From sequence record AF151674.1: 9,689 bases of DNA; one strand, 5' to 3'. Of the stretch, positions 1 to 8,297 are shown piece by piece (within the stretch, counting starts at the first letter, position 1; the number at the start of each line of letters is the position of its first letter). Below the pieces are notes generated by a model. That model saw only the letters and a program-made list of their open reading frames with translations, was not told where the DNA came from and searched no databases. The position numbers were made by a program, and so were the translations under genes. Source of the DNA: Enterobacteria phage P-EibC.

Positions 1-23
1 GCGCGCATACTGACAGACAGGAG

Positions 24-611
24 ATGAACATGAATGTGGAAAAAATAAGCAATCCGCAATGGGCAGATAAAGAGCACACTGCTGTCAATTGCATGGTGAA
101 GTTTGAGCACATTGAGCAGGCGGTTCCTTTCACTGCAACAGCCAGCGATACCGAAGCATACGGGCGGGATATTTATGCCGCTTGTCTGAGAGGAGAGGCC
201 GGTGAAATTGCAGAATATGTACAGCCATCCATCAGCCCGGAAAAAGCCAGAGAACTCAAAACCGCCGGGATCAACGCCTGGCGTAATGCGATGGAAGCGG
301 CGAACTACACGTTTGAGCACAATGGGCGTAAATGGGACTACGGGAAGTCAACGCAGACGCGTCTTGAGCCGTCGGTGGCGGCAGCGAAAGCGGGGAAACT
401 GCCGGAGCAGTTTTTCTGGACGGATGCGGACAATAATGACGTACCGATGGACGCTGAAACACTGATTGCTCTGAGTGCTGCTGCAGAGCAGGCGATGTTT
501 ACCAAAGGGATGGAAATCCACGTCCGGCAGCGCACCATGAAGAAAGAGCTGGAAAAGCTGACCAGTGCGGATGAGATACTGGCATACAGGGTTGGCTGGG
601 CACAGGAATAA
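24..611 (+). CDS. Phage tail fibre assembly protein (Tfa-like chaperone); true start may be the ATG at 30
   Basis: 195-aa ORF. It has an LPEQFFW segment resembling the LPENFTW region of lambda Tfa and a similar size (lambda Tfa about 194 aa). AGGAG at 18-22 is better spaced for the ATG at 30 than for the one at 24. An in-frame TGA at 11-13 just upstream would fit the end of a tail-fibre gene. Family assignment is from memory of Tfa sequences, not a search. Confidence 0.55.
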   Translation: MNMNVEKISNPQWADKEHTAVNCMVKFEHIEQAVPFTATASDTEAYGRDIYAACLRGEAGEIAEYVQPSISPEKARELKTAGINAWRNAMEAANYTFEHNGRKWDYGKSTQTRLEPSVAAAKAGKLPEQFFWTDADNNDVPMDAETLIALSAAAEQAMFTKGMEIHVRQRTMKKELEKLTSADEILAYRVGWAQE

Positions 612-969
612 CAGATAAAAATATGGGGGAAACATTTCTTTCCCTCATGAACTATTCCTCCTGTAAATATTTCATGTTAACTGAATAGTTAATTTTTTCT
701 GATGTTGTAATTTTGTTCACAAATTACAGTGTAAGCAGATGTGAAACAGCAAGTCTGACTGGGGTAAGTTTTTTCTGATATCTGTTCCGGCGGTGTGGTC
801 GTATGCGTGAGCAGGTATGCCCAGAATAATGTAAGACAAATCCTAAATTTATAAAATTAATTTTTAAATTTATTTTCGGAATATCCTGAATAAAGCCGTA
901 ATTAATCAGACTTTTTTATGAGTGTGTTACGGCTGATTTGTATACAGATAATTTAACAGGATATCCATA
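612..969 (+). promoter_or_regulatory. AT-rich intergenic region upstream of the eib-like gene; putative promoter/silencing region, with no specific -35/-10 assigned
   Basis: 358 bp non-coding and visibly AT-rich, including a near-palindromic A/T tract at about 841-880 (taaatttataaaattaatttttaaatttatt). A weak SD (cagga, 957-961) precedes the ATG at 970. Exact promoter elements cannot be fixed by eye. Confidence 0.3.
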
Positions 970-2484
970 ATGAGTAAAAAGTTTACAATGACACTCCTGT
1001 CATCTTCTCTGGCCGGGCTTCTGGTGATGAGTGGTGGGGTGAGTGCGCAGGAAGAAAAATACACAGTGCCGTATGCCATAGGTGAAGGTAAATGGGGGAA
1101 TACCTATGAAGTTGTAAAGACAGGCGGTAATGGTAACTTCAGATACGAAGTAAAAGAGAAAAACGGCAAGAAGAGGTCACTTTTCACATTTGATTCAAAA
1201 GGGGATGTAATAATCAATGGCAGTGGCATTACGTACACAATTCATGACGGTGCGCTGAACGATTTTGCTCAAACAGCTGAGAAAAAAAAGAATGGACAGT
1301 CTCAGTCGCACAGAATGACTGATAGCGTTGTTCGTGATGTATATAACAAAGTATACAGTCTGCAGAGAACAAAAATTACAGGTTTCAGCGTCGAAGATGG
1401 GGAGAATGGGAAGGTTTCTCTGGGTAGCGATGCGAAAGCCTCTGGTGAGTTCTCAGTAGCTGTTGGTACAGGGGCCAGAGCGGATAAAAAATTTGCAACA
1501 GCAGTGGGCTCATGGGCTGCTGCGGACGGTAAACAAAGTACAGCTCTGGGAGTGGGAGCATATGCCTATGCAAATGCTTCAACAGCCGCCGGAACAGCTG
1601 CTTATGTTGATGGTTCTGCTATTTATGGTACCGCTATAGGTAATTACGCAAAAGTGGATGAAAATGCAACAGAAGGTACTGCGTTAGGGGCAAAGGCAAC
1701 AGTAACAAATAAAAACAGTGTTGCATTAGGTGCTAATTCTGTAACCACTCGTGATAACGAAGTTTATATTGGCTATAAAACCGGAACCGAAAGCGATAAA
1801 ACATACGGCACCCGTGTTCTTGGTGGCTTAAGCGATGGTACGCGTAACAGTGATGCGGCAACTGTTGGGCAGTTAAACCGGAAAGTTGGTGGAGTTTATG
1901 ATGATGTTAAAGCCCGTATAACTGTTGAGTCAGAGAAGCAGAAAAAATACACAGACCAGAAGACCAGCGAGGTTAACGAAAAAGTTGAAGCCCGCACAAC
2001 GGTTGGTGTTGATTCCGACGGAAAACTTACCCGTGCAGAAGGTGCGACTAAAACTATCGCCGTCAATGACGGTCTCGTTGCTCTGTCTGGCAGAACAGAC
2101 CGTATTGATTATGCAGTTGGTGCCATTGATGGCCGTGTCACCCGTAACACGCAATCCATTGAGAAAAACAGCAAGGCGATTGCAGCCAATACCCGTACGC
2201 TGCAGCAACATTCAGCACGTCTGGACAGCCAGCAGCGCCAGATTAATGAAAACCACAAGGAAATGAAGCGTGCAGCAGCACAGTCTGCGGCCCTGACAGG
2301 TCTGTTCCAGCCGTACAGTGTGGGTAAATTCAACGCCACGGCAGCGGTTGGTGGTTACAGCGACCAGCAGGCACTGGCAGTGGGTGTGGGTTACCGCTTC
2401 AACGAGCAGACCGCAGCGAAAGCAGGCGTGGCATTCAGTGATGGCGATGCCTCCTGGAACGTTGGTGTGAACTTCGAGTTTTAA
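970..2484 (+). CDS. Trimeric autotransporter adhesin, Eib immunoglobulin-binding family (EibC/EibD-like); YadA-type head, coiled-coil stalk and C-terminal membrane anchor
   Basis: 504-aa ORF. N-terminal signal peptide [26 protein letters not shown]|QEE. Repetitive Gly/Ala-rich head motifs ([28 protein letters not shown]) typical of YadA-like heads. Coiled-coil-like stalk ([36 protein letters not shown]). C-terminal YadA-type anchor ending ...[10 protein letters not shown]. Position right after a phage tail-fibre assembly gene and next to a SPATE matches the published eib/eaa prophage loci of ECOR-9 as I recall them. Exact paralogue not verified. Confidence 0.8.
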
Positions 2485-2508
2485 TTGCTGAAGGTGACAT
2501 GAAGTATG

Positions 2509-2541
2509 ACGGCAGGCGCAGGACTCTGGTCTGCCGTTTTT
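2509..2541 (+). terminator. Candidate Rho-independent terminator downstream of the eib-like gene
   Basis: Stem acggcag (2509-2515) pairs with ctgccgt (2531-2537), extendable by a G-U and a C-G pair, followed by a T-run (2537-2541). It lies 25 nt after the stop codon. Confidence 0.45.
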
Positions 2542-2572
2542 CATGGGGCATAAAAAACAGGAAGGTGCTGCG

Positions 2573-3043
2573 ATGAAGGTGATTCTGGCTACCAGGAACC
2601 GCTATCTGGAGTATGGTCTGCAGGCGTTACTGAAGGGGCACAGTGTGATACTGGCGAGGGAGTTTTTCCTGCCGGAGAACCGCCGTTATATCCCGGACTT
2701 TGACGAATCCTGGCTGATAATCAGTGATGGCCTGCTGGGCAGGCTGATGCGCTGTATGTTCCAGGGGCGTCATTTTCTGCAACTGGATGCGGAGTTGCTC
2801 CGTGATGGTGAGCAGATAAGTGATGCCATACACAACGGCGTCTGGACGTATAACAGTGCTGCCCGCCCGCTGACGATGTCAGAGATGGTGGTGATGTTCG
2901 GTTATGTCTACCGCCAGTCGAGACCCTGCCGCCTTGCCAGTGAGATGGGTATTAACACAAAGACGGTGAATACCTTTCTGTATACGGGAATGGCGAAAAA
3001 CGGGCTGTATGGTGTGAGCGTCAGACGGCTTGTTGGTGCCTGA
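2573..3043 (+). CDS. Small LuxR/GerE-type helix-turn-helix transcriptional regulator (156 aa from ATG 2573; ORF track start 2543 less likely)
   Basis: The C-terminal approx 55 aa (LTMSEMVVMFGYVYRQSRPCRLASEMGINTKTVNTFLYTGMAKNGLYGVSVRRLVGA) follow the LuxR/GerE HTH pattern (LTxRExEVL...LGISxKTV...KLGV). The N-terminal domain (MKVILATRN...) lacks the acidic pocket of a canonical receiver. AGGAAGG at 2558-2564 sits 8 nt before ATG 2573; ATG 2543 lies inside the upstream terminator T-run with no SD. Confidence 0.55.
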   Translation: MKVILATRNRYLEYGLQALLKGHSVILAREFFLPENRRYIPDFDESWLIISDGLLGRLMRCMFQGRHFLQLDAELLRDGEQISDAIHNGVWTYNSAARPLTMSEMVVMFGYVYRQSRPCRLASEMGINTKTVNTFLYTGMAKNGLYGVSVRRLVGA

Positions 3044-3225
3044 TGGCGGTCCTGCCGGATGCGCGGCATCTTCTGATGATTCAGAAGGTGCAGATGATGA
3101 ACAAAGACAGAGACCGGAGATACGGGAGAAAGCGTTACACCACAGGCGCAATGTGTTTCATGTTGTTTGTGTGGCTGGGTGGGGTGGTGGCTCTTTTTAC
3201 CGCGGCAGCTGTGTTGCTTCAGTAA
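3043..3225 (+). CDS. Hypothetical small membrane protein (60 aa; possibly 42 aa from ATG 3097), stop/start-overlapped with the regulator
   Basis: TGATG overlap at 3041-3045 (regulator stop TGA and this ORF's ATG) suggests translational coupling. The product has a basic stretch (KDRDRRYGRKRYTT) followed by one hydrophobic helix (MCFMLFVWLGGVVALFTAAAVLL). No homology evidence; could be spurious. Confidence 0.2.
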   Translation: MAVLPDARHLLMIQKVQMMNKDRDRRYGRKRYTTGAMCFMLFVWLGGVVALFTAAAVLLQ

Positions 3226-7939: not shown

Positions 7940-7952
7940 AACACCCTCCTGT

Positions 7953-7972
7953 AACTGTGGTTATGTACAGTA
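7953..7972. promoter_or_regulatory. LexA (SOS) box 1 in the DinI-like promoter region
   Basis: aaCTGTggttatgtACAGta fits the CTGT-N8-ACAG consensus (TACTGT(AT)4ACAGTA). It lies 14-33 bp upstream of the dinI-like start codon. Confidence 0.6.
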
Positions 7973-7980
7973 TTATTTTT

Positions 7981-8000
7981 AACTGTATGTATAAACAGTG
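7981..8000. promoter_or_regulatory. LexA (SOS) box 2, tandem to box 1
   Basis: aaCTGTatgtataaACAGtg, a second CTGT-N8-ACAG match with an AT-rich spacer, 28 bp from box 1 (centre to centre). Confidence 0.6.
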
Positions 8001-8026
8001 TCAAGGTGAGGGGAAGTGATTTTTTT

Positions 8027-8084
8027 GGGGCATGCATGGGACAAAAATGTCTGTTGTGGGGCATTTTGGGGCATGGTTGGGACA
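8027..8084. repeat. Direct repeats GGGGCATG(CA/GT)TGGGACA, two 17-mers plus a partial copy, near the prophage end; candidate integrase/accessory arm-type binding sites
   Basis: ggggcatgcatgggaca at 8027-8043 and ggggcatggttgggaca at 8068-8084 are 15/17 identical, with a partial ggggcat at 8058-8064. They lie 120-175 bp inside the inferred phage/host junction. Confidence 0.3.
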
Positions 8085-8186
8085 CTTTGTTACATATGAA
8101 CTTTGCCGATTTTCATATGACATGGAAATTCAAGAGTTTGATTCTACTAAAGAAAACACATGCTCTTGGGCGTTCTTTAGTGATTT

Positions 8187-8297
8187 TTAAAAATCCCGTA
8201 TCACGCAGTTAAAGTGGCGGGCATACTCTTCAAGGCTGGTGATCCCCAACCGCACCCATTTAGGATGCGACCATTGCGGTAGACCGATGTAAATCAT
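8187..8297 (-). pseudogene. yecE: yecE 5' fragment, truncated by prophage insertion (32 native codons plus 4 phage-derived codons and stop)
   Basis: Minus-strand translation [32 protein letters not shown] matches the N-terminus of E. coli YecE as I recall it, then diverges (IRDF, stop at 8187-8189). The start overlaps the yecD stop as ATGA at 8294-8297, as in K-12. Confidence 0.6.

Follow-up and report, generated by a model that had tools for sequence, protein, structure and literature searches.

The window analysed here is a 9,689-nt stretch of DNA in which two autotransporter genes, eibC and eaaC, lie between phage tail-fibre genes and the Escherichia coli genes yecE, yecD and aspS. The gene layout was based on six-frame open reading frames (ORFs) and family scans (Pfam, NCBIfam, PHROG), and features are on the plus strand unless stated; their coordinates are collected in Table 1. 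Almost certainly it spans the tail-distal (right) end of P-EibC, a lambdoid prophage of E. coli ECOR-9, and the attR junction that this prophage forms with the host gene yecE; it carries lysogenic-conversion ("moron") genes. The ORFs and family scans confirmed the Eib-like trimeric autotransporter, the regulator-like ORF and the serine protease autotransporter of Enterobacteriaceae (SPATE) that the original prediction had placed there; orf-60C, the dinI-like gene and the att-arm repeats were additional to its list.

Table 1. Features of the 9,689-nt window, in order of position
Feature	Position	Strand	Basis or remark
3' end of upstream tail-fibre gene (lambda orf-401-like)	1..13	+	Counterparts in SW070917 and P-EibA
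orf-191C, DUF4376 tail-fibre-associated protein	24..611	+	ORF-191C of P-EibC, AAF63034
AT-rich eibC upstream region, with A/T stem-loop (844-872) and conserved proximal block holding the palindrome TTGTATACA (938-946)	612..969	+	GC 0.37-0.39
eibC, YadA-type trimeric autotransporter, 504 aa	970..2484	+	Exact match to EibC, Q9LA56/AAF63035
Terminator-like hairpin and T-run after eibC	2518..2542	+	Consensus scan; stem-loop annotated equivalently in P-EibA and P-EibD
orf-156C, 156 aa, predicted receiver-like N-domain and LuxR/GerE-like helix-turn-helix C-domain	2573..3043	+	Structure model, remote homology
orf-60C, small predicted membrane protein, 60 aa; start overlaps orf-156C stop	3043..3225	+	Identical to 'ORF-60C [Enterobacteria phage P-EibC]'
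eaaC, SPATE, 1335 aa	3317..7324	+	Exact match to EaaC, AAF63038
60-bp near-palindromic hairpin directly 3' of eaaC stop	7326..7385		Inverted repeats I3, I7
Terminator-like hairpin downstream of dinI-like gene	7574..7593	-	Consensus scan; 7-bp stem, 5 GC pairs
dinI-like gene, 82 aa, phage backbone	7691..7939	-	Pfam DinI E = 3.6e-17; phrog_189 E = 9e-27
Two LexA-box-like sites (CTGT-N8-ACAG, at 7955 and 7983) upstream of dinI-like gene	7955..7998		Pattern match
Two direct repeats, TTTTGGGGCATG..TGGGACA, candidate arm-type sites for integrase in attR	8023..8084		Tandem 21-nt repeat family D2, 90%
att core and first host bases, CACGCAGTTAAAGTGGCGGGC	8202..8222		First K-12-identical base; 21-bp duplication in PPyecE_EH1910
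yecE', first 32 codons of host DUF72 gene, then 4 phage codons and stop (IRDF*)	8202..8297	-	K-12 alignment, translation
yecD, isochorismatase-family hydrolase, intact	8294..8860	-	100% K-12 identity; NCBIfam PRK11440 E = 2e-116
aspS 5' part, 173 codons, ending with the stretch	9170..9689	+	K-12 alignment, translation

Comparison with E. coli K-12 MG1655 showed 100% identity over the 1488 nt from 8202 to 9689, corresponding to yecE nt 1-96, yecD and the 5' part of aspS. Similarity ended between 8201 and 8202, after nt 96 of the 819-nt yecE gene, and the phage/host break therefore lies where it had been proposed. The att core CACGCAGTTAAAGTGGCGG matched a 21-bp sequence annotated as 'duplication due to insertion' in PPyecE_EH1910 and several Stx phages. 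Host homology thus breaks within yecE at the att core. According to PMC8112680, Stx1a, Stx2a, Stx2d and non-Stx lambdoid phages integrate in yecE through a 21-bp att.

Exact-sequence look-up revealed that ORF-191C, EibC (UniProt Q9LA56, AAF63035), ORF-60C and EaaC (AAF63038) were identical at every residue to entries of Enterobacteria phage P-EibC. The P-EibC protein entries span AAF63034-AAF63038, with a 156-aa protein at the same position, and comparison of the proteins showed no difference from the stretch. P-EibC has been described alongside P-EibA, P-EibD and P-EibE and is cited as reference 27 in PMC3153244 and as reference 75 in PMC6956023. The original prediction had regarded the locus as probably of a known ECOR-9 eib-eaa class; judged by its proteins, the stretch is in fact the P-EibC locus as published. 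That the locus belongs to a prophage and that eib and eaa are linked in it is already known, and no new system is described here.

A survey of complete E. coli genomes and a search for the other junction and the integrase, both proposed with the original prediction, placed the stretch in its prophage context. Among 5426 complete genomes, nine had at least 80% of the stretch at a single site next to yecD and aspS. One of them, SW070917 (NZ_CM129862.1), had a complete lambdoid prophage of ~55 kb upstream of the matching segment, with a tyrosine integrase and an excisionase gene beside the remaining yecE piece, followed by repressor, Q, lysis, terminase, capsid, tail, J and tail-fibre genes. The att sequence was repeated at the two ends: attL of SW070917 (CACGCAGTTAAcatgaCGGGtAT) and attR (CACGCAGTTAAAGTGGCGGGCAT) shared an 11-bp exact core within an imperfect repeat of ~23 bp. 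The observations named as refuting the original prediction were thus not made in relatives. The distal yecE piece of SW070917 was itself interrupted (L006 7609-9631) by a second element with a serine-recombinase-family gene and phage genes, and yecE in this strain has thus been struck by two different integrating elements.

Several points weighed against assigning the stretch to the P-EibC prophage. No complete E. coli genome matched the whole stretch at 99% identity or more, the best match having 92% coverage and 97.7% identity. The P-EibC nucleotide record was not among the phage DNA matches, so that identity to the record rests on the proteins. The phage structural genes in the stretch were orf-191 and 13 nt of a tail-fibre gene, with no integrase, so that the prophage context of the source strain is drawn from relatives and from the entry names. 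This scarcity of phage genes would also suit a genomic island of non-phage origin, or a chimeric assembly, that simply adjoins yecE. Such an origin is exceedingly improbable, since the break is base-exact at a known phage att core, the adjoining dinI gene and arm repeats are common to bona fide yecE phages, and the same junction occurs in nine independent complete genomes, of which SW070917, inspected in full, has the whole prophage behind it.

As the right end of prophage P-EibC, the stretch would have arisen through recombination of a phage with a tyrosine integrase at the 21-bp att site of yecE, which cut yecE after codon 32. The moron genes eibC, orf-156C, orf-60C and eaaC lie between the tail-fibre genes and the dinI/att arm. 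EibC would be an immunoglobulin-binding trimeric autotransporter exposed at the outer membrane; EaaC would undergo Sec export and insert its barrel into the outer membrane, its passenger being cut at N1058/N1059 to give a secreted serine protease. ORF-156C would be a small protein with a receiver-like domain and a LuxR-like helix-turn-helix (HTH) domain, and ORF-60C a small membrane protein.

Pfam analysis of EibC found YadA_head in four stretches and YadA_anchor at residues 446-504. Residues 151-411 aligned to the EibD crystal structure 2XQH (E = 3e-143), with identity across 229-411, and residues 374-435 aligned to 2XZR. With an N-terminus that, judged by eye, resembles a signal peptide, EibC has the parts of an Eib-type adhesin, namely the signal peptide, YadA head repeats, a coiled-coil stalk and a YadA membrane anchor. 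The matching UniProt entry is named Immunoglobulin-binding protein EibC, and PMC4352079 reports immunoglobulin binding for the ECOR-9 Eib proteins. The literature on Eib proteins and the stalk identity to EibD over 229-411 suggest that EibC would bind IgG and IgA in a non-immune manner.

P-EibD has an annotated stem-loop whose coordinates equal those of the one upstream of eibC (844-872, TAAATTTATAAAATTAATTTTTAAATTTA). The last ~150 nt before the eib-type start were conserved over five loci whose upstream regions otherwise diverged. Each locus had one copy of the palindrome TTGTATACA(A), invariably 31-32 nt upstream of the ATG (937-948 in the window; L002, which is P-EibA, 3886; L003 943; L001 21058; L007 4731), and the palindrome could be an operator or promoter element of eib-type genes. 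An RfaH ops element upstream of eibC was sought by eye and rejected: the candidate GGCGGTGTGGTC departs from the consensus and was not conserved in the other eib upstream regions.

An EibC-type head at a coverage of at least 80% was present in 14 genomes, sometimes in a prophage other than the one with eaa. In UCPROB-002 (NZ_CM142927.1; query 612-1500), the EibC-type head lay at ~753 kb and eaa at ~391-399 kb. This distribution indicates that eib alleles are shuffled by recombination among resident lambdoid prophages.

For EaaC, Pfam analysis returned Peptidase_S6 (E = 3e-83) and the autotransporter beta-domain (E = 5e-36). The catalytic and processing motifs were intact. The triad H131/D152/S262 (GDSGS), aligned with Pic, is that of a SPATE protease. 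The processing site EVNNLN lay at 1056-1061, with N1058-N1059 at its centre, and left a barrel of 277 residues (1335-1058), in which residues 1059-1335 aligned end to end with positions 1-277 of the EspP barrel; the SPATE rule of a 277-residue beta-domain after the Asn-Asn site is stated in PMC3153244. The closest solved relatives of EaaC were Pic, Hbp and, for the beta-domain, EspP, and its beta-helical passenger was nearest to Pic and Hbp. By every sequence criterion, EaaC is an intact class-2-like SPATE, and it may be expressed and active.

In SPATE reviews (PMC3153244, PMC6956023), eaaA and eaaC of the commensal strain ECOR-9 are listed as prophage-borne and linked to eib genes, and one of the two describes eaaC as transducible. 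According to these reviews, of 2010 and 2019, the expression and activity of EaaA and EaaC have never been examined. The eaa passenger was found in 52 of the 5426 genomes, always on the chromosome and in up to four copies. An intact SPATE that is uncharacterised according to the reviews is thus found in ~1% of the complete genomes.

The 60-bp hairpin after eaaC is probably a terminator. In P-EibA it was inverted and lay ~215 bp further downstream (L002 10154-10213). The hairpin was also found in 1532 of the surveyed genomes, in unannotated intergenic DNA; in one example it lay in an island next to agn43, flanked by a GTPase gene and a gene of the yfjI family. The possibility that 7326-7543 is an invertible segment relative to P-EibA was discarded; only the 60-bp hairpin was inverted and the remainder was unrelated.

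The original prediction had called the product of orf-156C a LuxR-type regulator. Every source labels ORF-156C as hypothetical, and the gene was intact on hundreds of contigs; the protein would have 166 aa if started from the ATG at 2543. Sequence searches gave no meaningful match in Pfam (E up to 10), NCBIfam or PDB (phmmer), and the Pfam model GerE (PF00196) was not matched even at E up to 10. PDB matches to protein G and beta-2-microglobulin were dismissed as chance (E > 0.5). A literature text search returned no mention of ORF-156 together with eib.

The AlphaFold2 model of ORF-156C (predicted local distance difference test, pLDDT, 82.6; predicted template modelling score, pTM, 0.76) showed an alpha/beta domain of ~90 residues and, C-terminal to it, a domain of four helices (residues 102-112, 118-124, 129-142 and 150-155). 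The top Foldseek matches of the model were FixJ, RcsB, EvgA and VpsT, with a probability of up to 0.98, and the C-terminal domain of the model has the helical HTH form of NarL/FixJ effector domains. When a profile of 20 ORF-156 family members was compared with PDB, the top four matches were all LuxR-type HTH proteins (VqmA, GerE), though weak (E 0.06-0.4). Against the GerE cutoff of 23.5 bits, the distant relatives P0144 and P0120 scored 28.4 and 22.2 bits. The HTH segment, LTMSEM..LA.EMGI..KTVN.FLY, was the best-conserved part of the family. An exhaustive profile search of 1.84 billion proteins yielded 37 representatives of the family and no bridge to large LuxR families.

The features of a two-component response regulator, namely an acidic pair, a phospho-acceptor Asp and a cognate kinase, were not found for ORF-156C: T7 and N9 occupy the acidic-pair positions, only four strands are predicted and no kinase gene lies nearby. 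The fold similarity and the transitive, weak Pfam matches make the LuxR-type label plausible as a statement on fold and distant homology, for a protein that is atypical and that no database names so. ORF-156C may bind DNA and regulate some target. A homologue of ORF-156, 55% identical, was located in a non-phage island beside hpaBC (L011-L014, gene 6001-6495), together with a PerC-family gene; ~1.1 kb of uncalled DNA lay upstream of it and no called trimeric autotransporter gene adjoined it.

The exact sequence of ORF-60C was present on at least 1000 contigs. The translated protein begins with a basic stretch and has a hydrophobic segment towards its C-terminus, and the P-EibA and P-EibD records list the counterparts orf-60A and orf-60D. 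A 216-aa protein (P0072; 156+60) was 99% identical to ORF-156C, while in P-EibC orf156 and orf60 overlap by one base; this suggests that an indel has fused the two genes in some strains or contigs.

DNA comparison with the sister prophages showed 94% identity to P-EibD over 1-3225 and 98% to P-EibA over 1980-7325, which runs from the last third of eib to the end of eaa. The GC content was 37-46% over the eib upstream region and the 5' half of eib and rose to 53-59% over orf156-eaaC. The cargo is mosaic and its modules are separable: orf191-eib-orf156 is conserved, and orf60/eaa is optional. The original prediction had proposed a candidate immune-evasion module; the cargo does not form one unit, eaa being optional to orf191-eib-orf156. 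A single phage does deliver both autotransporter genes; their action as a coordinated immune-evasion module is conjectural.

The role of ORF-156C and the unity of the cargo were considered together. ORF-156C might belong to a tiny orphan family, nearly confined to E. coli, of phosphorylation-independent proteins with a receiver-like and a LuxR-type HTH domain that travel with prophage eib-type genes and serve as their dedicated switch, perhaps through the palindrome TTTGTATACA(A) 31-32 nt before eib-type starts. This proposal is unlikely to hold. If it were true, ORF-156C would be a phage-encoded control point for the expression of Eib and, where present, of Eaa. Eib expression has so far been ascribed to unlinked factors and growth conditions, and published eib activation involves the unlinked IbrAB island. 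It could instead be that ORF-156C is no transcription factor and that its receiver-like/HTH resemblance is a degenerate remnant or an artefact of the model, the protein having another role or none. That explanation, too, is on the unlikely side. Its starting point is the failure of ORF-156C in direct family searches, and it has to contend with a confident model (pLDDT 82.6), with three independent methods that all gave NarL/FixJ-type or LuxR HTH proteins as the top matches, and with an HTH segment that is the most conserved part of a family whose gene is intact on hundreds of contigs.

A wider form of the regulatory idea is that eib, orf156, orf60 and eaa are one co-adapted and co-regulated immune-evasion system in which the LuxR-like protein governs both autotransporters. 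The four genes are co-oriented and tightly packed, with the orf156 stop overlapping the orf60 start; no promoter-like site was found by the scan between 2484 and 3317; the fold of ORF-156 is regulator-like; and the palindrome is invariant 31-32 nt upstream of all eib-type genes examined. Yet P-EibD, P-EibE and the yehU-side prophages keep eib and orf156 without eaa, and one orf156 homologue has no called gene for a trimeric autotransporter next to it. Composition changes sharply along the island, from 37-46% GC in the 5' half of eib to 53-59% in orf156-eaa, and between eibC and orf156 there is a hairpin plus T-run. A single system of this kind is quite improbable, and the cargo is best described as separable modules. 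The locus offers a clear-cut reference example of one lambdoid phage delivering two different autotransporters, and a conserved small regulator-like protein, ORF-156, adjoins every eib gene.

The original prediction had described about 7 kb of non-phage cargo reaching up to the junction. This description suited eib, the regulator-like gene and the SPATE gene; the ~660 bp nearest the junction, with the dinI-like gene, LexA boxes, hairpin and arm repeats, are phage backbone, a dinI/att-arm segment common to other yecE phages. The same dinI-like gene adjoins attR in PPyecE and in Stx phages at yecE. Upstream of it, a promoter-like site on the minus strand (8004-7975) had 10 of 12 consensus matches, and with the LexA-box-like sites this suggests that the last phage gene before attR may be under SOS control. 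Motifs similar to GGGGCAT/TGGGACA were found in the att arms of PPyecE_EH1910 and in attL of SW070917, and the repeats at 8023-8084 are likely integrase arm-type sites.

At the other end of the stretch, the SW070917 gene annotated as 'prophage tail fiber N-terminal domain-containing protein' stopped 13 nt inside the aligned stretch, and in P-EibA an orf-401-like gene occupies the matching position. ORF-191C matched Pfam DUF4376 (E = 1.4e-19) and phrog_1141 'tail fiber protein' (E = 1.5e-79). Its homologues in phage records were mostly named 'tail fiber protein' or 'tail fiber component', and a few 'tail fiber assembly protein'. The original prediction had called orf-191C a tail-fibre assembly gene. 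Its position, the tail-fibre PHROGs and DUF4376 agreed with a tail-fibre gene, whereas no assembly chaperone family model was matched; DUF4376 was the sole Pfam family returned, and Caudo_TAP, the Pfam family of lambda Tfa, was not among the matches. An assembly role may be supposed from the position of the gene 3' of a tail-fibre gene.

An Rfam scan of the whole stretch (E up to 0.1) returned no RNA family, and a tRNA/tmRNA scan found none. Two further ORFs, 3030-3320 (96 aa) and 7373-7555 (60 aa), were dismissed as genes, having no exact copy in a collection of 15 billion proteins. The promoter scan gave fewer sigma-70-like sites than shuffled controls (4 vs 9.4), and therefore no particular promoter was supported by it.

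Compared with NarL/FixJ-family regulators (FixJ, RcsB, EvgA, DevR and VpsT), ORF-156C has a like predicted two-domain layout, with an alpha/beta receiver-like domain and a C-terminal LuxR-type HTH domain. However, it is ~50 residues shorter, has four instead of five beta-strands and lacks the acidic pair; it matches neither the GerE nor the Response_reg model, and no gene for a partner kinase lies nearby. The class-2 SPATEs Pic and Hbp/Tsh (passengers 9Z7B, 1WXR and 3AK5), with the EspP beta-domain, share with EaaC the S6 domain, the triad, the beta-helix passenger, the N-N site and the 277-residue barrel. The EaaC passenger is nevertheless a distinct sequence compared with Pic and Hbp/Tsh, and according to the reviews its substrate, expression and phenotype have never been reported.

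The lambdoid yecE phages (PPyecE_EH1910 and the Stx1a, Stx2a and Stx2d phages) resemble P-EibC in the att core region, in dinI beside attR and in the GGGGCAT/TGGGACA arm motifs; however, their dinI/att arm is only ~82-83% identical, and their cargo is nleC or stx, while that of P-EibC is eib and eaa. P-EibA (AF151091), also from ECOR-9, has in its depositors' annotation the order J-lom-orf401-orf191A-eibA-orf156A-orf60A-eaaA, as in P-EibC, and its record ends before any host junction. Its SPATE equals EaaC save for 8 residues, whereas its Eib head and upstream region differ, with no similarity over 607-1979 of the window. P-EibD of ECOR-9, likewise by its depositors' annotation, has orf191D-eibD-orf156D-orf60D followed by a gene like L0124 of 933W, without eaa. 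P-EibD, P-EibE and the yehU-side eib-like prophages share the orf191-eib-orf156 module and its flanking stem-loops with P-EibC; P-EibE and the yehU/btsS-side prophages likewise lack eaa, and in the latter orf157 leads straight into dinI.

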